NCBI GenBank assembly: GCA_964291655.2
Contig: OZ219802.1
Span: 1,184,001 to 1,248,000 of the forward strand
DNA: 64,000 bases
DNA from: Chloroflexota bacterium
GTDB taxonomy: Bacteria; Chloroflexota; UBA11872; VXOZ01
Reading direction: 5' to 3'
Shown: positions 5,005 through 15,871 of the stretch, piece by piece
Layout of the letters: every line of letters begins with the position of its first letter
How positions within the stretch are numbered: position 1 is the stretch's first letter
Notes under the pieces: generated by a model
Told to the model about the DNA's origin: nothing
The model's database searches: none
The model's input: only the letters and a program-made list of their open reading frames with translations
Program-made: the position numbers and the translations under genes

Positions 5005-6409
5005 CATTTCCAATACCCTCGGCGGCCAAAGAGAGCCGTTCGCGCCCCTCGACGGCAAGAACGTCAAGATGTACGTGTGCGGTATGACGCCCAAGCGCGA
5101 GCCGCACATCGGCCATGCGCGGCTCTTTGTCGCTATGGACATGATTCGACGCTACCTTGCCTACCAAGGCTACGAAGTCCAGCACGTCCAAAACATCACC
5201 GACGTCGACGATAAGATTATTGCGGCGGCGGAACGCGAAGGCGTGACGCCGGATGAAGTAGCGCAAATGTATACGGACGCCTATGACGCGGTGATGGGCA
5301 ACCTGAACGTGCTGCGGGCCCATGAGTTTCCCAAGGTTACCAAGACCTTGCCGCAGATCATCGCTATGATCGAGGGACTGATTGAGAAAGGGGCAGCGTA
5401 CGCGGCCGAAGAGGCGGTGTATTTCTCGGTCCCGGGCTTTGCGGAATACGGCGCGCTTTCCACGCGTACCGAAGAGAGCGGTATCCAGGCCGGCGCTTCC
5501 GGACGCGTGGATGATGAGCCGGGCAAGCGCGACCCCCGTGACTTTGCTCTGTGGAAGCCGGCGAAACCCGGCGAACCCTGGTGGCAGAGCCCGTGGGGCC
5601 AGGGTAGGCCCGGTTGGCACATCGAGTGCAGCACGATGATCTATGAGACGCTCGGCGAGCAAATCGACATACACGGCGGCGGCGCCGACCTCATCTTCCC
5701 CCACCACGAGAATGAGATCGCGCAGAGTGAAGCTTTTACGGAGAGAGTCCCGTTCACCAAGTACTGGCTCCATACCGGTCTGCTGACGATCAACGGCCAG
5801 AAAATGGCGCATTCGCTCGGCAACTTCATCACGATCGAGGACATTCTCAAAGAGTACAGCGGGCCGGTGCTGCGGCTCTACCTGCTCTCCGTACACTACC
5901 GTTCGCCCCTCACCTATTCACCGGACAGCCTCGATCAAGCGCGGTCCGGCATGGCGCGCTTGACCGGCGCGTTGCGTGTGCAAGCCGGGGGCAGCGGCAG
6001 CACCGATGCCGCACTAAGCCAGGCAACGCAGCAGGCCGAGACCGGCTTCTTTGCCGCCATGGACGGCGACTTCAACTCCGCCGGTGCGTTGGGGCAACTC
6101 TACGAACTCGTGCGCGAGATCAACCGTTTGGGGGCTGAGGCGCGGCCGTCCACCTTGCAGGCCGCTCAGGAGACGCTGGTGAACTTGGCCGATATCTTGG
6201 GTATTGACTTGCAGGAGATGCTGGAAGCGGAAATGGCGACCGGTGACGGCGACGCCGCCGGGTTCATTGACCTGCTTGTGGAGTTGCGTTCCGACCTGCG
6301 CCAGGAAAAGCAATTCGCGCTGGCGGACAAAGTGCGGGATGAGTTGGCAGCACTGGGAATTGCGCTAGAAGATTCGTCTAGCGGCACAGAGTGGCGACGC
6401 AAGAACTAG
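4994..6409 (+). CDS. cysS: Cysteine--tRNA ligase
   Basis: HIGH motif, [43 protein letters not shown]; GTG start after GGAGAG inferred. Confidence 0.94.
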
Positions 6410-6509
6410 CCTGGACGACGTGCCCCGACTGCGTTCTCACCCAATGTGGGCAAAACTCGAGGAAGCCGTACGTCGTCTTATTTTGCGCAGGGTCTGTTCG
6501 CTCGCGGAA

Positions 6510-6983
6510 GACCGGAGCGGGGGACAAGCCCCCGCGCTACATGGCCGGAGCGACCTCCGGTAGGTGCAGGTTTGCAACCTGCACGCGCCAAATTGGTTGC
6601 CTAGCCCGTCCGATCACGGCCCAATTTGGCAACACACACGCTGACCTGGCGGTAGACAAGCCCCCGCGTTACGCTCTGACTAGCCGCCCTCCGCGCCAAT
6701 CCCAGCCACCGTTCGCGCTTTGGGTTGCGCAAAGCACCTGTCGAAGCATAATCGGCATGTGCCTGATCGACCGGAGCGGGGGACAAGCCCCCGCGCTACA
6801 TGGCCGGAGCGACCTCCGGTAGGTGCAGGTTTGCAACCTGCACGCGGCGCATGGGTAGCTTTGGCCGAGCGATCGCGAACCAATTTGGCAACACACACGC
6901 TGACCTGGCGGGGGATAAGCCCCCGCGCTACGTTCAAACAACAGGGCATCATGTGCTTAGGACTTTGCCGTTCGCGCTGAGCT
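6510..6983. repeat. Mosaic of GTAG-type REP palindromes in two ~259-bp direct units (BIME-like)
   Basis: gcgggggacaagcccccgcgctac x4 (some degenerate), gtaggtgcaggtttgcaacctgcac x2, ccgttcgcgct..tgtcgaagc x2; units start at 6510 and 6769. Confidence 0.9.
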
Positions 6984-7012
6984 TGTCGAAGCGCAAGTGG
7001 CGGCCTCTGGGC

Positions 7013-8530
7013 TCAGGGCCCAGGTTCGTCACTCTCTTCCTCAAAGATGTGCTGGATACTCTCGCCAAAGTCTCGCGCTTCGTCGTCGTACGTTGCAAAG
7101 GGATTCGGCATTTCCAGCACCCGGCCGTGGGCGGCGATGGCTTTCCAGTCCAGCACGTAGGGTATGACTTCCCAGCTATTGTTGGCGGCCACGTCCTCCC
7201 AGTCGTCCACGTAGTCATAGGCGAGAAAGAAATAGCGCCGATCCCACATGAGGTTCTCCAAATTTGACCTCAGGTCCTGCCACGGTATGGCCGTATCGGC
7301 CCCGGCGGCGGCCAGCGCGCGCAACGCCAGACTCCGCCCGTGGGCGCGCGTGTCGATTGGCGCTTGCGTCTCGGCCGTATAGACGGCGTCGCCTTCCGCC
7401 CAATAGAGATTCCGGTGCAGTTTGGCCAGCACGTCGAAGAGACTGATCGACGGGTCAATTTGGTGATAGGAAAGATCGAGTTTTATCAGGTCAGGGTCGG
7501 TCCAGGCCTGGTCGCTGCCGGCATAGCGCTTGATTTGCTCATGCTTCGTAACCCAATCCAAATAGCCATCGAGCCGCGCCGGGTCTCGCTCAAGTTCGTC
7601 CAGCACCCACGCCCAATTTTCCAGAGTCCATTCCGTATCCGCGTCGCGCCCTACAAAGCGCCGCTCGGCCTCACGCAGATAGCCTCGCTGCACCTCAATG
7701 GCGGGGATGTACTCGTCGTTATCGGTTCCCACCGTCCAACGGCCGCCGGTGGTCGCGGCAATGCGGCGGAGGTCGCGCACGGGATCAGCGAGAACAAGCT
7801 GCGGGCTCCAGCCCTGCTCGAGCAACTGAGCAACCAGCGCGGTTGTGCCAATCTTCAGCGCCGTCGTGTACTCCGAACGATTTACGTCGCCGACGATGAC
7901 GTGCAACCGGCGGTACGTGCGCTCCGCCAGTGGCTCGTCCCGCAGATTGATGATGGGCCGGCCGCCAAAGCGCACGCGATGGCTTACATCGATGGTTACG
8001 AATTGCGCCCGCTGGGAGAGGGCAAAAGCAGCCGGGGTATCGTCGCCGCGGGGCAGCAGGCAGCCGGCTCCCGTGTAGATCTGGCGGGTAACGAGAAACG
8101 GGAGCATGCCATCGACAAAGTCGCTATCGTACGGACTCTGCCGGATGCAATAATTCTCATGGTAGCCGAACGTATGGCCGAAATAGTCCGTGTTGTTCTT
8201 GACGAAGTAGGCCTGTGACTGCAGCTCGGCGGCTTTCACGGCTTGGTTGATAATGGTCTCGCCCGCTCGCTCATGGGCGACGATGTCGGTCAGCGTGCGG
8301 CACTCAGCCGTAGCATGTTCCAGGTGACCGAGGTCCAGGTACATACGTCCGCCATTGAACAGAAAGCCGCCGTTTCCCGGCACCTCGCCCCATTCGCGGG
8401 GAGGCGGGTCTATCAGACCGTGTCGACACCCGCGAAAGATAGCATCCTTCACCAGCAGGGCAGCGCGCACAGGCTGCATACTGCCTACACAGCCGTATTC
8501 TATTTCGGTGCCGAACAGAGCATCTTCCAT
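7013..8530 (-). CDS. pafA: Pup ligase (PafA-family) homolog
   Basis: FGTEIEYG, FLFNGGRMYLDLGHLEHATAEC, KNNTD..GYHENY, SQRA, RDEPLA..YRRLHVIVGD and DLSYH motifs; the ATAEC segment is PafA-like rather than Dop-like. Confidence 0.82.
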   Translation of the reverse strand: MEDALFGTEIEYGCVGSMQPVRAALLVKDAIFRGCRHGLIDPPPREWGEVPGNGGFLFNGGRMYLDLGHLEHATAECRTLTDIVAHERAGETIINQAVKAAELQSQAYFVKNNTDYFGHTFGYHENYCIRQSPYDSDFVDGMLPFLVTRQIYTGAGCLLPRGDDTPAAFALSQRAQFVTIDVSHRVRFGGRPIINLRDEPLAERTYRRLHVIVGDVNRSEYTTALKIGTTALVAQLLEQGWSPQLVLADPVRDLRRIAATTGGRWTVGTDNDEYIPAIEVQRGYLREAERRFVGRDADTEWTLENWAWVLDELERDPARLDGYLDWVTKHEQIKRYAGSDQAWTDPDLIKLDLSYHQIDPSISLFDVLAKLHRNLYWAEGDAVYTAETQAPIDTRAHGRSLALRALAAAGADTAIPWQDLRSNLENLMWDRRYFFLAYDYVDDWEDVAANNSWEVIPYVLDWKAIAAHGRVLEMPNPFATYDDEARDFGESIQHIFEEESDEPGP

Positions 8531-8841
8531 GCTGCGTATTCCAATGTGGCGTGGGCTTAGCCGGACGAGTGCGGCGCTAGTTTTCCGCGTGCGATTGTAA
8601 TGGACATTCTGACCTAGCGGACAATGTAAACTCAGGCGACCTACTTTTCACGGGAGTTCATGGAGAAAGGCCGAACGGCTACCGGACCATGCGGAAGTAG
8701 ATACATGTGGCAAGAGCGTTCGATTGTTCGCCGGCCTCTCAATAAAGATTGCCATTAGCGTGGGGTTCACGGGGGGATAATTCGAACTTAACCGAGAGTT
8801 ACTCGACCGGCGCCTCGGATGCTTGGCTTCTCGACCGTTGG

Positions 8842-9066
8842 CTACTCTCCACCAGGCTGCGGTGTGGGGTCGGGCACCTCGCGAATGATGCGCTTGATCT
8901 CTTCGTCAAGATCGTCGGTTTCGGTTTTCTCCGGCGCCTCAGTGGGCGTTTCCGTAGGCGCATCGGCGCCTGCCAAAACAGAACGCGGGCCGCCCCGCAG
9001 CAACCCCTGCCACACTGTAGTGTTGGAGTGTTCTATCTGAAATCCATTCCCAGCATACCACGTCAC
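8842..9066 (-). CDS. Small Pup/UBact-like modifier protein (74 aa) ending in QPGGE
   Basis: AAGGAGG RBS and GTG overlapping the dop stop (GTGA); acidic Pro/Thr-rich sequence; C-terminal GGE-stop; lies between dop and pafA. Confidence 0.8.
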   Translation of the reverse strand: MTWYAGNGFQIEHSNTTVWQGLLRGGPRSVLAGADAPTETPTEAPEKTETDDLDEEIKRIIREVPDPTPQPGGE

Positions 9067-10577
9067 GAGCCGCCTCCTTGTTGCACTGCTCGGCGGAGTT
9101 CTTCGATTGTTTGACACCCATCCACCAATTCTTGCTGTCTCTCCACTGTGGCCCCCCACAGTTCATTCAGAGATAGAGTGAAGGACGCCCCGTTGTGCCC
9201 AAATGTGACGGATCCCCACTCCATTTCCGTAATGTACGGCGCGAACTTGGCGAGGCAAGCTGCGCGCACCGTGGCACGCGTGCCTGCGGGCGCTGTATTC
9301 TCCGCGCGGTCGATATCCGCATCCGTCACAATGCGCTGCATCCGTCCGGCGCGGGTCAGCATGTGGTAGAGGCTCACCGCAGGGTCCACCATATGGTACG
9401 CGAGATCGAGCCGCAGCACCGCCGGGTCATCCCAGTCGACGGCGTCATCACCGCTGACCTGGGCGAAGAGCGCGAGCTTTGCCACCCAGTCCAGACGGTC
9501 GCGCAAGCGCGTGGGGTTCGCATCCAGCAGATCAAGCACGGTTCCCCATTCGTCCAGCACCCAATCGGTCTCGTCGTCGCGATTGTGGTATCGTTGCGCC
9601 GCTTCCCAATAGAGGCGCTGAATGTCAATGGCACGCAGTGTAGAGCCGTCGGCCATTGCAAGAGGCTGCTGCAATTTGAGATCGCGAGAGACCGCTCGCA
9701 GTGCCTGCACAGGGTGTCGGAGTTGCACCCGTGGCGTAAGACCCTCCTCGACCAAATCGAGCATCAAGGCCGTGGCACCGACGCGCAAGGCCGTGGCAAA
9801 CTCGGAGCAATTGGCGTCGCCAATGATAACGTGCAACCGGCGGTACTTCTGAGGATTGGCGTGCGGTTCGTCCCGCGTATTGAAGATCGGGCGTTGTGTG
9901 GTGGTATTTATGCCCACTTCTGTTTCAAAGAAGTCCGCCCGCTGGCTGATTTGAAAACCGCCGGTGCGGCTCGTTGCCGTCTCATACGCCGCTTTCCCCG
10001 CGCCCGCATAGATCTGACGGGTGACGAAAAAGGGGATGCAGGCTGATATCAGATAGTCCAAAGGCACACTACGGCTTACAAGATAATTTTCGTGGCAGCC
10101 GTAACTCCTACCGTGATAGTCTGAGTTATTCTTGACGAGGCGTACGCCATTCTCTTGTCCCACGGCTGTGTTACGCGCTTGTTGGGCACGGAAGACCACA
10201 CGCTCGCCGGCCCTGTCTTGGGCAACAAGATCATGGAGCGAGAGGCACGCATCGGTGCAGTATTCGGGATGATTGTGGTCGTTGTAGAGACGGGCGCCGT
10301 TGGCAAGCACGGTATCGGCGAGGAGGTCCTGCCGGCTGAGATGCCTGCTCTTGGCAGTGTTACCGCGCAGGTCGTGCGGATCTTGGTCGAGGCGTTTAAC
10401 TCGTTTGCCGCGCAGGTCTACGCGCGGGTTTTCCGCCGTGTAGTCCCACCCGCGGAAGCAGTCCGCCAGCGGCGCGCTGCGCACGAGCATGGCCGCCTCG
10501 TAGGCGAAATCCACGGTTTCCGCGGCGTTGGCGCAGAGCATGCCGTACTCGGTCTCGATTCCCACCGGGCGATTCAT
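9063..10577 (-). CDS. dop: Depupylase/deamidase Dop-family (PafA2) homolog
   Basis: GIETEYG, LANGARLYNDHNHPEY (Dop-type DHxHPEY), KNNSD..SYGCHENY, SQRADFFE and RDEPHA..YRRLHVIIGDAN motifs. Confidence 0.88.
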   Translation of the reverse strand: MNRPVGIETEYGMLCANAAETVDFAYEAAMLVRSAPLADCFRGWDYTAENPRVDLRGKRVKRLDQDPHDLRGNTAKSRHLSRQDLLADTVLANGARLYNDHNHPEYCTDACLSLHDLVAQDRAGERVVFRAQQARNTAVGQENGVRLVKNNSDYHGRSYGCHENYLVSRSVPLDYLISACIPFFVTRQIYAGAGKAAYETATSRTGGFQISQRADFFETEVGINTTTQRPIFNTRDEPHANPQKYRRLHVIIGDANCSEFATALRVGATALMLDLVEEGLTPRVQLRHPVQALRAVSRDLKLQQPLAMADGSTLRAIDIQRLYWEAAQRYHNRDDETDWVLDEWGTVLDLLDANPTRLRDRLDWVAKLALFAQVSGDDAVDWDDPAVLRLDLAYHMVDPAVSLYHMLTRAGRMQRIVTDADIDRAENTAPAGTRATVRAACLAKFAPYITEMEWGSVTFGHNGASFTLSLNELWGATVERQQELVDGCQTIEELRRAVQQGGGS

Positions 10578-10725
10578 GGGTCTATCCTGACTTTGCGATT
10601 GTAGAATCTAGTATAGCAAGCCGCAGCGCGATTGGACGCCCCGTCCGCGAGACCGTCGCGTCCGCGGAGTCGCCGCACGTCGAGAGGGATTTGCACAACG
10701 TGCTCAGGATTGAGGCACACAGAAA

Positions 10726-10980
10726 TGTAGCGCGGGGGCTTGTCCCCCGCTGGCCTGGCACTTGGTACCCAAACGGGCTGCTCTTGGCCGGCGGAGTAAC
10801 TCTCGCGCCTCGTCCAGGTTGCATAACTGCACCTACCGGAGATCGCTCCGGCCTTGTAGCGCGGGGGCTTGTCCCCCGCTGGCCTGGCACGTGGTTCCCA
10901 AATGGGCTGCTCTTGGCCGGCGGAGCAACTCGCGCGCCTCGTGCAGGTTGCAAACCTGCACCTACCGGATGTCGCTCTGG
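10726..10980. repeat. Two ~129-bp tandem units of GTAG-type REP mosaic, inverted relative to 6510-6983
   Basis: tgtagcgcgggggcttgtcccccgctggcctggcac at 10726 and 10855, each followed by caggttgca..ctgcacctaccgga. Confidence 0.9.
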
Positions 10981-10999
10981 GCAGACATGCGCCGCCGGC

Positions 11000-11884
11000 T
11001 TACCGCGGATCCTGCGGGCCGATGTCGCCTTCCGCCAGGATGCCGTAGAGTTCCGGCCGGCGGAAACGGGGATGGAAGACTCCCTGCGAACGGCGCTCGG
11101 CCAGGAGTTGCTTATCGAGGTCGGCAGTGACCATCACTTCGTCATCGGCGTCATCCGGGGAGGCCGCCACCAGTTGTCCCAGCGGGCTATAGACCACGAC
11201 CATGGGATTACTGTAGTGCGCGCTCCCGCCGGTTGGCGGCGGCCCGCAGGCGTTGATAGCAACGAGAAAGACCCCGTTATCGATGGCACGTGCGGGAAAA
11301 GTACGGCCGGCGTAGTCTTTCCAGGCGCGGTTGCGGCTGGCGTGGTCCGGCGGCTCGCCCCACTCGCCGACTGACCAGACGTAGGGAGCGAGGATGACCT
11401 CAGCCCCTTGCAACGCCACCATGCGGCTCGACTCCGGCAGCCAGTTGTCGAAGCAGATGTTCACGCCAACTTTGGCAACACCAATGTCGATTACGGGGGG
11501 AGTGCCGCCGCCGCGCCAGTAACCCACCTCCGCCGGTGGGATGTGTATCTTGCGCGACTTGCCAATGTACCCATCAGGACCCACGATCACGTAGGTGTTA
11601 TACACAATGTCGCAGTCGTTTTCGGCAATGCCGGCGGCGAGCATGACGTTGTGCTCCCGCGCCAGGTCTACGAGCGCCTGCGTGGAAGGTCCCGGCACCG
11701 GTTCGGACGCCTCCCAGATTGCCGGTGTGATGGAATAGCCGCTCAGACCAAGTTCCGGAAAGCAGATGAGTTCGGGATTCTCCGCCTTGGCCCGCACGAC
11801 CCACGCGGCGTGATGGTCCAGGTTCTCCCGCGGCGACGCCGGCTTGCTGCACAGCGACACCGCCGAAACGCGAAAGCTCTGCAT
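11000..11884 (-). CDS. Carbon-nitrogen hydrolase (nitrilase/amidase family)
   Basis: Catalytic triad context FPEL, RKIH and ICFD. Confidence 0.9.
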   Translation of the reverse strand: MQSFRVSAVSLCSKPASPRENLDHHAAWVVRAKAENPELICFPELGLSGYSITPAIWEASEPVPGPSTQALVDLAREHNVMLAAGIAENDCDIVYNTYVIVGPDGYIGKSRKIHIPPAEVGYWRGGGTPPVIDIGVAKVGVNICFDNWLPESSRMVALQGAEVILAPYVWSVGEWGEPPDHASRNRAWKDYAGRTFPARAIDNGVFLVAINACGPPPTGGSAHYSNPMVVVYSPLGQLVAASPDDADDEVMVTADLDKQLLAERRSQGVFHPRFRRPELYGILAEGDIGPQDPR

Positions 11885-12301: not shown

Positions 12302-15300
12302 TCAATCTGTAGGTATCTCTAGTTGGTCGTATTTGTTCCAGCCCCAGCAGAGGGCCGTGCCGTTCTCTCTCAGTCCGCAAGCATGCATTCTGCCGGTAGT
12401 GATGTCCGTGAAGCGCTCGCCTTCCGGCGGTGAAGCCTTGCCATAGGCGTCGTCACCCCAGCAGACGGCAGTGCCGTCCGTTCGCAGGGCGCAGGTGTGG
12501 TCATAGTTGGAGCTTATCGCCGTATAGCGCTGGCCCGTGGGCGGGGATGCTTCCCCGTACCAATTTTGGCCACCCCAGCATACAGCGGTGCCGTCAGTGC
12601 GTAGAGCACATGCATGAGAACTACCGCTGCTGATCACCCTAAAGCGTTCGCTCTCCGGCGGCGATGTCGCACCACTATAGTCGTCGCCCCAGCAAATGGG
12701 CGTACCGTCTTCTCGCAGTGCGCATGTGAACAAACTGCCGCTGCTTATAGACGTGAAGCGCTCTCTTTGAGGCGCCGATGTTTGAACGTAATCATCCCAG
12801 CCCCAGCAAGCGGCAGAACCATCCTCGCGAAGAGCACAAGTGTGGCCACTGCCAGTGCTGATGGCAGTAAAACGCTCGTTCGCAGGTGGCGTTGCCTGTC
12901 CGCCGCTATTGTTGCCCCAACAGATAGGTGTTCCATCCTCACGCAAGGCACAGATGTGCCCACTAGTGCTAATTGCGGTAAAGCGTTCGTTATCAGGTGG
13001 CGCTAAGCCAATTCGACCCCAGCACACGGGTGTTCCGTCCGTGCGGAGCGCACACGTGTAGCCTGAGGTGCTGCTGATCGCCATGAAGCGAGGCGCAGGT
13101 GTGGGCGTTACCGATGCGGACGTAGAAGGCGAAGGCGTTGGGGGTGGAAGCGGAGCGTGATAGGACTCCGGTGAGGTTTGGCCGTAGTCCTCCCATCCCC
13201 AGCAGACGGCGCTGCCGTCCGCACGCAGGCCGCAGGTGTGGGAACTGCCAGCGCTGATGTCCTTAAACTGCTCATCTGCCGGCGCCGAGGATTGTCTTGA
13301 GTGATCATCTCCCCAACATACGGCCGTGCCATCCGGACGAAGCGCGCACGTGTTGCCCGACCCACTGCTGACAGTTGTAAAGCGCTCACCTTCCGGCGGC
13401 GTTGCAGCGTGAACATATCCCCAGCAGACGGGAGAGCCATCATCCCGCAGCGCGCAGGTGTGGCTAACTCCACTGCTAATCGCCGCGAATTGCTCTCCTT
13501 CCGGGGGAGCTGCCTGTTCCTGGCCGTTCTCTCCCCAGCAGACCGGGGTGCTGTCTGCACGGAGTCCGCAGCCGTGCGAAGCGCCCGTGCTCAAGCTAGT
13601 GAGAGTCTCACCCTCTAGGGGACTCTCATCAATGAACTCCCGGCCCCAACAAACCAGGCTTCCGTCCGTCTTGAGGGCGCACGTGTACGAGCGCCCGTAG
13701 CCGGAGCTGACCGCCGTGAAACGGTATTCCTCTGGCGGCGACCGAGGCGGCGAGGGCTCGCCTCCGCCCGACGGCCAGCAATACACCGTGCCGTCCTTAC
13801 GCAGCCCGCAAGGTTCGGCTCCAACGCTGACGGAACTGAACCGCTCGTTGCGTCCTAAGTAGTAACTGGAATCCCAGGGTCCCCAACAGTAAAGAGAACC
13901 GTCTGTACGGAGACCGCAGGCCTGATTGTAGCCGCTGCTGATGGCGGTAAAGCGCTCTTCCGCAGGCGGAGAGGCGTCTATGCCCCAACAAACCGGCGTG
14001 CCGTCCGCGCGCAGCGCGCAAGTGTGCAAGTCCCCGCTGCTGATAGCCACGAAGCGCTCTTCCTCCGGCGGCCGCGCCTGCCCGAAGTTGTCTCGATGGG
14101 GGCTAGCGTCTGCTTGCACGCGAAACCCCCAGCAAACCGGAAAACCATCTTTGCGCAGCGCGCACGTGTACTTTCCAGCACTACTGATGGCGATGAATCG
14201 TTCGTCCTCAGGAGCATCGGCCCGACCATCGTAGTTTTCACCCCAGCAGACGGGAGATCCGTCTTCACGCAGAGCGCACGTGTGGTATTGACCGCTGCTG
14301 ATAGTAACGAACGCCTCACCGAGGGGTGGAGCAATGGCTCCTGGCAAACCCCAACAAAGAGGCTTGCCACCAGCAAGTAACCCACAAACATGGTTGCCAC
14401 CGCTGCTAATTGCCAGGAAGCGCGCGCCTTTTGGTGGCGATGCCTGTCCTGAATGATTTGATCCCCAGCAGATTGCAGTGCCATCTGCTCGCAATCCGCA
14501 GGAATGGCGCTCACCACTGGTGATGGCAACGAAGCGCTCATTCACTGGAGGCGAAGACTCGCCGTACTTGTCGTCATCGCTCCAGCAGACGGGAGAGCCG
14601 TCCTCACGCAGCGCGCAGGTGTGCTTGTCACCGCTGCTGACGGCGACGAAGCTCTCGCCCGCCGGCGGCGCCGCCTGGCCTTCACGATTCGATCCCCAGC
14701 ATAACGCCGTGCCGTCCGGCCGCAGGGCGCACGTATGTAATCTCCCGCTGCTGATGGCTACTAGGCCTTCCGCGGCGAGCTGCGCAAAGACAGGCGTGGG
14801 GGCCGACCTCGCCACGAGCGGCTGCGCGGGTGGCGGCTTGGAGGCATCCATCGGCAGCGATGCCTTGCCGTAACTATCATCTCCCCAGCAATAGATAGTC
14901 CCGTCCGCGCGCAGGGCACAGAAGTGGTTTCCGCCACTGTCGAGCGCCACGAAACCCTCACCTTCCGGCGCTATCGTTGTACTTTCAAACCTACCGCCCC
15001 AGCAGAGTGCCGTCCCGTCCGCCTGCAAACCGCAGGCGCGGAAAAAGCCGACGATTACTGCCGTAAAGCGTCGGTCTTCAGGAGGCGAAAGATCGGCAAG
15101 CAGGTCACGGCCCCAGCAAACGGCTCCGCCGTTTGCGCGTAAGGCGCACGTGTCATTCGCACCGCTGGCTATGGCAGTGAAGCGCTCCTCTGTCGGGGCC
15201 TCGGTCTGGCCATCTTCGCTATTGCCCCAACATGAGGCGCCACCATCTGTCCGCACCGCACAGAAAAAGTTTCCGCCACTGCTGATGGCAATATAGCGCT

Positions 15301-15871
15301 CGCCCTCCGGCGGCGTTGCCGCCCCGCCACTGTCCAAACCCCAGCAGACGGCGCTGCCGTCTTCACGCAGGGCGCAGGTGTGCAAACTGCCGCTGCTGAT
15401 GGCCGCAAAGCGTTCGTTACTTGGTGGGGGAACCTGCCCAAATCTATCATCGCCCCAACAGACTGCCGTCCCATCCGCTCGCAGGGCACACGTGTGCCCC
15501 CAGCCGCTGCTGATGGCGGTGAAGCGTTCGCCTGTGGGAGCCGATACCTGACCAAAATAGTCCGAGCCCCAGCAAACTGCGCTGCCATCCTCCCGCAGTG
15601 CACAGGTATGATCATAGCCGGTGCTCACCGCAATGAAGCGATGCGGAGGTGTCGGTGTAGCTGTCCCCATAGGGTAAGGACTAGGCGAGGCGACAGGCCC
15701 AGAGAGAAGATCCTGTGCGTCCGCTGGTTGCGGTGCCGCAGGCAAGACCCGCTGATCGCCTGCGCATGCCGCCAGCAGCGCTACTGTCAGCAGGAAGAAC
15801 AAGCCTATTCTTGCCAATAGGCACACAAACTCTTGTACGGGGAGCAGCACGAGGTATGAGAGTGTCGACAT
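12302..15871 (-). CDS. Large RCC1/BLIP-II-like repeat lipoprotein (28 repeats)
   Basis: Hydrophobic signal and LAAC lipobox; repeat FxAISSGxxHTCALRxDGxxVCWG; Pro/Thr-rich linkers. Confidence 0.88.
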   Translation of the reverse strand: MSTLSYLVLLPVQEFVCLLARIGLFFLLTVALLAACAGDQRVLPAAPQPADAQDLLSGPVASPSPYPMGTATPTPPHRFIAVSTGYDHTCALREDGSAVCWGSDYFGQVSAPTGERFTAISSGWGHTCALRADGTAVCWGDDRFGQVPPPSNERFAAISSGSLHTCALREDGSAVCWGLDSGGAATPPEGERYIAISSGGNFFCAVRTDGGASCWGNSEDGQTEAPTEERFTAIASGANDTCALRANGGAVCWGRDLLADLSPPEDRRFTAVIVGFFRACGLQADGTALCWGGRFESTTIAPEGEGFVALDSGGNHFCALRADGTIYCWGDDSYGKASLPMDASKPPPAQPLVARSAPTPVFAQLAAEGLVAISSGRLHTCALRPDGTALCWGSNREGQAAPPAGESFVAVSSGDKHTCALREDGSPVCWSDDDKYGESSPPVNERFVAITSGERHSCGLRADGTAICWGSNHSGQASPPKGARFLAISSGGNHVCGLLAGGKPLCWGLPGAIAPPLGEAFVTISSGQYHTCALREDGSPVCWGENYDGRADAPEDERFIAISSAGKYTCALRKDGFPVCWGFRVQADASPHRDNFGQARPPEEERFVAISSGDLHTCALRADGTPVCWGIDASPPAEERFTAISSGYNQACGLRTDGSLYCWGPWDSSYYLGRNERFSSVSVGAEPCGLRKDGTVYCWPSGGGEPSPPRSPPEEYRFTAVSSGYGRSYTCALKTDGSLVCWGREFIDESPLEGETLTSLSTGASHGCGLRADSTPVCWGENGQEQAAPPEGEQFAAISSGVSHTCALRDDGSPVCWGYVHAATPPEGERFTTVSSGSGNTCALRPDGTAVCWGDDHSRQSSAPADEQFKDISAGSSHTCGLRADGSAVCWGWEDYGQTSPESYHAPLPPPTPSPSTSASVTPTPAPRFMAISSTSGYTCALRTDGTPVCWGRIGLAPPDNERFTAISTSGHICALREDGTPICWGNNSGGQATPPANERFTAISTGSGHTCALREDGSAACWGWDDYVQTSAPQRERFTSISSGSLFTCALREDGTPICWGDDYSGATSPPESERFRVISSGSSHACALRTDGTAVCWGGQNWYGEASPPTGQRYTAISSNYDHTCALRTDGTAVCWGDDAYGKASPPEGERFTDITTGRMHACGLRENGTALCWGWNKYDQLEIPTD

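Follow-up and report, generated by a model that had tools for sequence, protein, structure and literature searches.

Bacterial pupylation is understood almost wholly as a route to the proteasome. In its actinobacterial form, represented in our material by loci L099-L103, the genes stand in the order arc/mpa-dop-pup-prcB-prcA-pafA. As passages of the literature describe, Corynebacterium and some other Actinobacteria have no proteasome subunit genes and carry pup directly before pafA, and even such proteasome-less actinobacteria retain the unfoldase ARC (PMC3511204); a non-degradative role of their pupylation, the disassembly of ferritin, has been described (PMC8223512). In Plesiocystis and Rhodopirellula, a Pup-like tag ending in G[EQ] is encoded beside PafA-family genes, unlinked to proteasome genes, and a regulatory role has been proposed (PMC2588565). 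A further tag type, UBact, has sequence sources that include Armatimonadota and Poribacteria. Here we describe a related locus in a stretch of 64,000 nucleotides (nt), positions 1,184,001-1,248,000 of the forward strand of contig OZ219802.1 from a Chloroflexota bacterium; the whole stretch is referred to as the window, and coordinates are positions within it. The locus is a minus-strand cassette of three co-oriented genes, namely a dop-like gene, a small open reading frame (ORF) for a putative tag and a pafA-like gene, in this order. In our judgement the cassette is probably a complete and selectively maintained Pup-type tagging module of a distinct Chloroflexota lineage; it most likely works in both tagging and untagging, its tag is of a new type, and no reader of the tag is known.

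Of 79 related loci, 75 carry titles that name Chloroflexota, Chloroflexi or Thermoflexus, and the remaining 4 are titled 'uncultured Actinomycetes'. Both enzyme genes were readable in 72 of the 75 Chloroflexota loci, the other three contigs ending too early, and in 71 of these 72 a small ORF between dop and pafA carried the tail RI[IV]RE[IVM]P[DGN]PTPQPGG[EQ]. Because the gene order and the PQPGG[EQ] end recur in 71 of 72 readable loci, the arrangement is far more than a product of chance. The tail stays constant though Dop identity to the window falls to 45%. Its last residue is Glu in 44 and Gln in 27 of the 71 tags, an alternation that is also seen in Pup. The sole two-enzyme Chloroflexota locus without such an ORF is L071 (876-3772), where the gap is 105 nt and the start of the ligase ORF is atypical; an assembly fault or a genuine loss may explain this exception.

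The tag gene of the window is closely joined to dop, as the initial annotation had claimed. Its GTG start (9066-9064) overlaps the dop stop TGA (9065-9063) in the sequence GTGA, and AGGAGG lies at 9078-9073, 6 nt ahead of the GTG. The ORF had been listed as 8842-9159 from an upstream GTG; the 74-amino acid (aa) form is supported because a search of 5.8 billion proteins matched 23 with lengths of 69-74 aa, which include the product of the window itself (99% identity), and because the start MTWYA is common to the window ORF and 21 of the 22 aligned database proteins (P0002-P0023, the exception being P0023). None of the 23 proteins bears a name. The tag begins with a half of variable sequence, continues with a stretch rich in Pro, Thr and Glu and an acidic, helix-like segment DDLDEEIKRIIRE, and closes with the tail VPDPTPQPGGE, so that its C-terminus reads ...DDLDEEIKRIIREVPDPTPQPGGE, ending PDPTPQPGGE. 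When the window tag and its 22 database relatives are aligned, the sequences vary freely over the N-terminal half, with the last ~40 residues near-invariant; two of the sequences end in GGQ. In its length, its GGE end and its place between dop and pafA, the tag agrees with the combination by which Pup-like proteins have been recognized, namely 50-90 residues, a G[EQ] end and a PafA-family neighbour (PMC2588565). Most lineages also have in common a segment such as ETEAPTKPAEAP, located upstream of the acidic helix. In loci L045-L102 this part of the tag (residues ~33-48) shows a conserved E-[TA]-[ED]-A-P-x-K-P-x-E-x-P upstream of the helix that contacts the ligase in the model described below, and it is a candidate docking site for a further partner.

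By sequence comparison, the tag is of a type that escapes the current models of Pup and UBact. At E<=10, the window tag matched nothing in Pfam or NCBIfam, and none of the 22 Chloroflexota tags matched the Pfam Pup and UBact models. The window tag failed the Pup models PF05639 and TIGR03687, with which an actinomycete control tag scored 74 and 71 bits, and the UBact models PF20513 and NF033388, with which the tag of the class member G017 scored 79 and 77 bits. Profile-profile comparison by hhalign gave a probability of 3% for actinomycete Pup and one of 0.4% for a set of 34 UBact sequences, and a search of the ESM Atlas with the tag gave no usable match. By eye, EEIKRIIREVPDP resembles the UBact sequence ELLRRMRRVDPD, a likeness without statistical support. 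The tag is also single-copy. The PQPGG-type end motif occurs once in the six-frame translation of the genome, and composition-corrected tblastn with 22 Chloroflexota, 34 UBact and 4 Pup queries matched the genome at the cassette only. Four uncorrected tblastn matches of UBact tags were of Arg-rich low complexity, and none was left after composition correction. Since PF03136 likewise detects exactly the two cassette genes in the genome, the search for additional pup, ubact or pafA copies that had been proposed turned up nothing beyond the cassette.

The Dop-like gene is predicted, by analogy with the described enzymes, to encode a depupylase, and in relatives with Gln-ending tags a deamidase as well. 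Its product matches PF03136 (Pup_ligase) with 512.6 bits against a cut-off of 25, and its best NCBIfam model is TIGR03688 (Dop) with 441.5 bits, below the cut-off of 492.3, with 354.1 bits for the PafA model. The match to the Acidothermus Dop structures 5lrt/4b0r (366 bits) is full-length, over residues 1-499, and includes the Dop loop, an insert that is also visible in the family alignments. This loop comprises ~40 residues and is missing from PafA, according to passages of PMC7947786. The protein keeps the motifs GIETEYG, YNDHNHPEY (Y-N-D-H-N-HPEY), KNNSD, HENY and RDEPHA. The GhExE nucleotide motif is thus present, and so is the Asp of Y-x-D-H-x-HPEY, which we take to be the catalytic residue. 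The catalytic motifs are strongly conserved within each Chloroflexota family, as alignments of its members (66 Dop-like, 68 PafA-like) show. As the tag of the window already ends in Glu, the Dop-like enzyme should serve removal only in this genome, as initially suggested. However, 27 of 71 related tags end in Gln, and the system of the clade therefore probably still uses deamidation.

The PafA-like gene is predicted, again by analogy, to encode the tag ligase. Its product matches PF03136 with 355.7 bits, keeps the GxExE strand (GTEIEYG), the Y-L-D aspartate, KNNTD and HENY, and is without the Dop loop, a short insert PPREWGEVPGNGG standing in that place. An alignment of 27 Chloroflexota ligase sequences shows 131 invariant columns. 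The single-chain model of the ligase has a predicted local distance difference test value (pLDDT) of 76.8 and a predicted template modelling score (pTM) of 0.84. For a model of the complex, a ligase alignment of 27 rows was paired with one of 22 rows for the C-terminal 45 residues of the tag, in three runs and with three controls. The complex scored 0.74, compared with 0.00 for the best control; the mark applied to this score is passed by 58 of 80 solved complexes and by 2 of 110 mismatched pairs. The pLDDT of the partner was at least 63, and at least 74% of the contacts agreed between runs. In the modelled interface, tag residues 34-44 of 45 together with the helix face ligase residues 11-21, 67-69, 108-122 and 332-371, which comprise a helical groove of the C-terminal part and the strands that bear the GxExE and Asp motifs. 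The model thus supports binding between tag and ligase. The Chloroflexota ligases also carry a ~45-residue insert in the C-terminal domain (residues ~424-470) that is missing from actinomycete PafA; it contains invariant Y440, Y458 and W462 and forms in part a small beta-sheet in the model, with low confidence.

Phylogenetic analysis places both enzymes nearest to those of a UBact locus. The Pup_ligase family, collected at E<=0.001, comprised 4462 clusters at 50% identity. A FastTree tree (145 rows) and an unrooted tree from an IQ-TREE quick search under a site-mixture model (54 rows) agree. In the IQ-TREE tree, the Dop-like protein falls within the Dop clade (20 rows including actinomycete Dop) with a Shimodaira-Hasegawa-like approximate likelihood ratio test (SH-aLRT) support of 98, a placement also given by FastTree, and the Chloroflexota Dop-like clade is sister to the Dop of G017 (SH-aLRT 99). 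The PafA-like proteins form a clade of their own outside the Dop clade (SH-aLRT 98). This clade does not join actinomycete PafA; it joins the G017 ligase, the three G017 paralogues and a Gemmatimonadota 'PafA2 family' cluster (SH-aLRT 97), and 'PafA2 family protein' is also the name that NCBI's pipeline gives to such enzymes. When the Chloroflexota ligases are forced together with actinomycete PafA, against a grouping of all Dop rows with the UBact-locus ligases, the log-likelihood falls by 40.3 units, with p = 0.002 in the approximately unbiased test (p-AU), a value weakened by the fact that the group was named after the tree had been seen. The unrooted tree is compatible with one duplication into Dop and ligase, and with a minimal cassette that is either ancestral or reduced.

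The class member G017 provides the closest comparison. Its locus L106 (G017:C2:56000-74000) has the canonical order arc-dop-UBact-prcB-prcA-pafA with a 73-aa tag that the scores given above mark as textbook UBact. Its ligase shares with the cassette ligase an N-terminal insert (IDPxPREWGExPGNGGF against IDLHSRDYSFEPAGCGGF) and the VSxRVR alpha-loop, features that support the grouping in the tree. In contrast, UBact tags end in RQR[ST]G[EQ] and the cassette tag in PQPGG[EQ], and the cassette has neither a linked nor an unlinked proteasome or ARC. Three solitary PafA-family paralogues of G017 (L107, L108 and L109) stand without an adjacent PQPGG[EQ]-type tag. With the actinobacterial Pup-proteasome system the cassette shares the pair of ligase-fold enzymes, one of them with the Dop loop, the catalytic motifs, the tag gene directly after dop, the GG[EQ] end and the overall dop-tag-...-pafA order. 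It differs from that system in the lack of prcB, prcA and arc in locus and genome, in a tail that is Pro-rich (PDPTPQPGGE) whereas that of Pup is helical (FVKSYVQKGGQ), and in a ligase that stands outside the actinobacterial PafA clade. The Corynebacterium-type arrangement (arc-dop-pup-pafA) resembles the cassette in having lost the proteasome; however, it keeps the unfolding ARC, which was not found here, and its tag and ligase lineages also differ. The ligases of Plesiocystis and Rhodopirellula have a four-transmembrane insert and a linked membrane-protein gene, whereas neither cassette enzyme has a hydrophobic segment (maximum 19-residue Kyte-Doolittle means of 1.27 and 1.02) and the cassette has no conserved neighbour. 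The text of PMC2588565 does not mention Chloroflexi, and in Hecht et al. 2020 (PMC7947786) Chloroflexi are not among the phyla listed with Dop or PafA homologues, the main text not using the word at all; the supplementary alignments of either paper might list such sequences. Within the literature searched, no Pup-type system of Chloroflexi or Chloroflexota is described.

In the window's own genome (3,473,974 bp in 2 contigs, 97.55% complete and 1.67% contaminated), no component of a proteasome was detected. PF00227, which covers proteasome subunits and also detects HslV in controls, had no match in the genome and was positive in 10 of 14 controls. The Pup-AAA/ARC model TIGR03689 matched AAA cores only, with a best score of 146.9 bits over profile positions 175-391, and the matching ORFs were two FtsH-type proteins and ClpX. 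The ARC OB domains PF16450 and PF17758 and the PAC2 assembly chaperone had no match in the genome, and tblastn with ARC, PrcB and PrcA of the actinomycete loci L099 and L103 again returned AAA cores only. PF10759 (Bpa) also had no match in the genome, yet none in the control either, which makes this search uninformative. A complete proteasome/ARC set elsewhere in the genome, which the initial annotation had said would make the cassette a split canonical system, was sought by both profiles and tblastn and not found.

The same picture extends to the class. We sampled 61 relatives, covering the window's own genus (16 species) and five other families of the class. PF03136 genes are present in 59 of them, nearly always two and 200-900 bp apart, and the reading frames are intact, with no stops within the matches except in one fragmented assembly; the two genomes without Pup_ligase genes are small (2.0-2.1 Mb) and 91-92% complete. 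PF00227 is missing from 51 of the 61, including many single-contig genomes that are 94-99% complete, and TIGR03689 exceeded its cut-off in none of the 61. Among the 10 relatives with a PF00227 match, the match is linked to the cassette in G017 only. The remaining matches are weak, and those scanned are solitary ORFs of 246-265 aa (41-48 bits), which may be Anbu- or BPH-like and, wherever coordinates are available, lie at a great distance from the cassette. They include L020 1198-1995, L021 1492-2241 and L022 1243-1983 (in G011, G043 and G051), with an ornithine cyclodeaminase-family gene next to the first and a [2Fe-2S] thioredoxin-like ferredoxin gene next to the second; in G011 the solitary ORF lies ~375 kb from the cassette.

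Across the phylum, a strong Pup_ligase match was found in 21 of 201 sampled genomes, all in the window's class (the own genome plus 20 of 22), and in none of the 178 genomes sampled from other classes. All positives thus fall in one class, and the groups seen in the Dop subtree recur in that of the ligase; the cassette is a trait of the class as a whole and is vertically inherited. Five further genomes (those of loci L083, L084, L088, L077 and L047, among them two Thermoflexus-titled metagenome-assembled genomes and UBA2235) gave PF00227 in one, a 29-bit fragment, and ARC over the cut-off in none; three of the five are not independent, because their match coordinates coincide with those of class members already counted. 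One carrier record is titled Thermoflexus hugenholtzii JAD2, presumably from a cultured species.

Several observations weigh against the reading of the cassette as a working tagging module. Both enzymes score below the NCBI equivalog cut-offs for Dop and PafA, and for the ligase the distance is large (283.5 bits with TIGR03686 against a cut-off of 551.3, and 249.6 with the Dop model). Compared with solved structures, the ligase matches Dop (206 bits) and PafA (205 bits) alike, and its model fits PafA 4bjr (TM score 0.75) and Dop 7oxy equally well (0.75-0.76), so that the fold search cannot separate PafA from Dop. In actinobacterial enzymes, the alpha-loop decides between ligase and hydrolase, and in PafA it is a helix with the conserved pattern H-x-W-E-G-x-S-S-A..R-S (parts of PMC7947786, including its Table 1). 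The corresponding segment here, FVTIDVSHRVRFGG, shares V-S alone with actinomycete PafA, has VSxRVR in common with the UBact-locus ligase and is modelled with pLDDT <50. Because the alpha-loop differs in sequence and is poorly modelled, ligase activity stands as a prediction. The complex score may mirror likeness rather than real binding, because the PafA-Pup complex 4bjr has been solved. The tag has no significant similarity to Pup or UBact by model or by profile-profile comparison, and its putative role draws on position, size, end motif and a structural model. Finally, the genome is not closed.

On the family's known chemistry, the cassette would work as follows. The small disordered tag, with its C-terminal Gly-Gly-Glu, would be ready for ligation. 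By analogy with PafA, the ligase would bind the conserved tag helix and the Pro-rich tail in its groove, activate the terminal Glu with ATP and join this Glu to lysines of target proteins. The Dop-like enzyme would hydrolyse the isopeptide bond between tag and lysine and, in relatives whose tags end in Gln, would first deamidate the tag. Gene content, conservation, the absence of proteasome and ARC, the kinship of the enzymes and the supported tag-ligase interface are computed results; catalysis, lysine targets, reversibility and the fate of tagged proteins we infer by analogy. Given that there is no 20S proteasome and no ARC/Mpa, tagging cannot feed the classical Pup-proteasome route, and given that ARC was neither found in the genome nor over the cut-off in any of the 61 class genomes, a Corynebacterium-type working is also impossible. 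The outcome is most likely a reversible modification that would change the activity, assembly or partners of the target, and hand-over to an AAA+ unfoldase is the main alternative.

In that alternative, the tag would mark proteins for degradation and be read by another AAA+ unfoldase or protease (FtsH, ClpXP or others) through its Pro/Thr/Glu-rich motif or its N-terminus. The genome does encode two FtsH-type proteins and ClpX, and the N-terminal half of the tag is disordered and variable like that of Pup, whose N-terminus is the part threaded by Mpa (PMC8755798). Moreover, the E-[TA]-[ED]-A-P-x-K-P stretch lies outside the confidently placed interface residues and would thus be free for another partner. 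However, none of the 75 Chloroflexota loci has a gene for an unfoldase or protease linked to the cassette, the genome yielded no protein with the coiled-coil/OB domains that serve ARC as Pup receptor, and we regard a degradation tag of this kind as possible, if on the whole doubtful. A different departure from the tagging module is that the enzymes ligate Glu to a small amine or an envelope component, or that the small ORF is a regulator or substrate mimic. The superfamily of the cassette enzymes includes glutamine synthetase and gamma-glutamyl-cysteine ligases (PMC2588565) and the fold search matches likewise, the tag belongs to no known tag family, and the alpha-loop that differs here has been implicated in target binding by PafA in parts of PMC7947786. 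What makes this idea improbable is the pattern of pupylation as a whole: a full-length Dop with its loop, a Glu/Gln alternation at the tag end and a modelled groove binding in which the tag tail points to the active-site strands. The nearest relatives of both enzymes, moreover, stand in a UBact-proteasome locus.

Two further explanations start from the missing proteasome. An ordinary split Pup- or UBact-proteasome system, with its remaining genes elsewhere or unassembled, would be in keeping with an unclosed genome of 97.55% completeness and with the full arc-dop-UBact-prcB-prcA-pafA locus of G017 in the same class. Against it stand the lack of PF00227, ARC, OB-domain and PAC2 matches in the own genome, where tblastn found AAA cores only, the absence of PF00227 from most relatives and of ARC over the cut-off from all of them, and the solitary, weak and distant nature of the scattered PF00227 matches; we consider a split system very improbable. 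Alternatively, the cassette could be the decaying, non-functional remnant of a former proteasome system, a possibility suggested by the missing proteasome and ARC and by enzyme scores under the equivalog cut-offs. Such decay is hard to reconcile with the frames kept intact across 59 of 61 relatives, with the invariant columns of the ligase, with a tag tail that is invariant across lineages whose Dop is merely 45-58% identical and with the conserved coupling and operon layout, and a remnant is hardly credible. We therefore return to the working module with a new tag type as the most likely reading.

The features of the locus are listed below.

Features of the cassette and its immediate surroundings (positions in the window)
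Feature	Position	Strand or placement	Basis
Dop-like gene, 504 aa	9063..10577	-	PF03136, TIGR03688, PDB match, tree
Shine-Dalgarno-like AGGAGG	9073..9078	-	read in sequence; within dop 3' end
Tag gene, 74-aa form, stop included	8842..9066	-	coupling to dop, conserved C-terminal half
Non-coding spacer, tag to pafA-like gene	8531..8841	-	311 bp
PafA-like gene, 505 aa	7013..8530	-	PF03136, TIGR03686, tree
Carbon-nitrogen hydrolase gene	11000-11884	upstream of dop	PF00795, 145 bits
Repetitive extragenic palindromic (REP)-like repeats	10725-10983 and 6510-6935	upstream of dop and other side, respectively	one repeat family

Most elements of this layout had been described in the initial annotation. 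The assignment of the host to Chloroflexota agrees with what was first proposed, ORFs, Pfam, NCBIfam and PDB matches concur on the minus-strand cassette of dop, a 74-aa ORF ending in GGE and pafA, and the REP cluster (10725-10980) and nitrilase gene that had been placed upstream of dop are indeed there. The proposed tree of PafA and Dop against actinobacterial and UBact-type enzymes led to the UBact-locus kinship given above, and the proposed comparison of neighbourhoods revealed the class-wide dop-tag-pafA arrangement, accompanied by no other gene family across lineages. The gap of 311 bp had been taken as the place where prcBA would be. The gap itself is real; the idea of a former prcBA site did not hold. 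In the 13 closest loci (Dop identity of at least 75%) the spacer between tag and pafA measures 24-673 nt, and 58 more distant loci have a median spacer of 12 nt (range 6-734). Because its length varies in close relatives and is short further out, this comparison of loci identifies it as a local variable spacer and no scar of prcBA. It is single-copy in the genome and poorly conserved, barely alignable among congeners. For comparison, the distance from dop to pafA in actinomycete loci is 1809-1929 bp with pup included in that stretch. An Rfam scan of 6300-11100, spacer included, gave no match, and a scan of 6800-11000 for promoters and terminators gave no signal above shuffles (0 promoter-like elements against 1.4 expected, 5 terminator-like against 3.3).

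The units of the REP-like repeats are 126-167 nt long with a GC-rich hairpin core, and they lie in inverted orientation on the two sides of the cassette. They were considered as a sign of mobility, and this was rejected: the family has 85 blastn matches genome-wide, on both contigs, and is therefore nothing specific to the cassette, which is inherited class-wide. Beyond the repeats on the downstream side follow cysS, a serine acetyltransferase-like gene and ispF. On the other side, positions 12302-15871 of the minus strand encode a 1189-aa RCC1-type repeat protein (21 RCC1_2 stretches, 583.8 bits) whose N-terminus is hydrophobic and whose linkers are rich in Pro. In relatives, the cassette is adjacent to housekeeping genes that differ between lineages, among them those for ornithine cyclodeaminase, metallophosphoesterase, acetyl-CoA carboxylase subunits, FabA, 2-hydroxyacid dehydrogenase, a haloacid dehalogenase (HAD) hydrolase, cysteinyl-tRNA synthetase (CysRS) and MarR. 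When 1305 ORFs from 75 loci were clustered, no family beyond Dop and PafA occurred in more than 26 loci, and the family in 26 loci was rejected as an extra cassette gene, since the coordinates of one member suggest an ORF that runs antisense to dop. In L049, the pafA-like gene is directly followed by a 318-aa ORF (13292-14248, plus strand) that has no Pfam match and whose own family occurs in 16 loci. A possible avoidance of lysine in the two enzymes was likewise dismissed, as 9 Lys in ~505 residues corresponds to the 30th percentile of the genome's long ORFs and is not unusual, and the PADLOC defence models gave no match for any of the three cassette proteins.

The tag gene has been overlooked in genome annotation, as the Pup and UBact models miss it. 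A whole class keeps a ligase, a remover and an extremely conserved tag, nearly always without proteasome or ARC, and this raises the question as to what purpose a Pup-type tag without a reader may serve. The question is directly testable, as it involves three small genes, a ligation-ready tag and an established Escherichia coli co-expression assay for PafA-type ligases. More tentatively, and with real doubt on our part, the cassette may represent a third bacterial family of gamma-glutamyl tags beside Pup and UBact, one that would provide reversible, non-degradative lysine signalling without a dedicated unfoldase or protease, and it may be a minimal ancestor of the proteasome-coupled UBact and Pup systems and not a reduced offshoot of them. 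The tie of the Chloroflexota enzymes to the UBact branch bears on the origin and spread of these systems.

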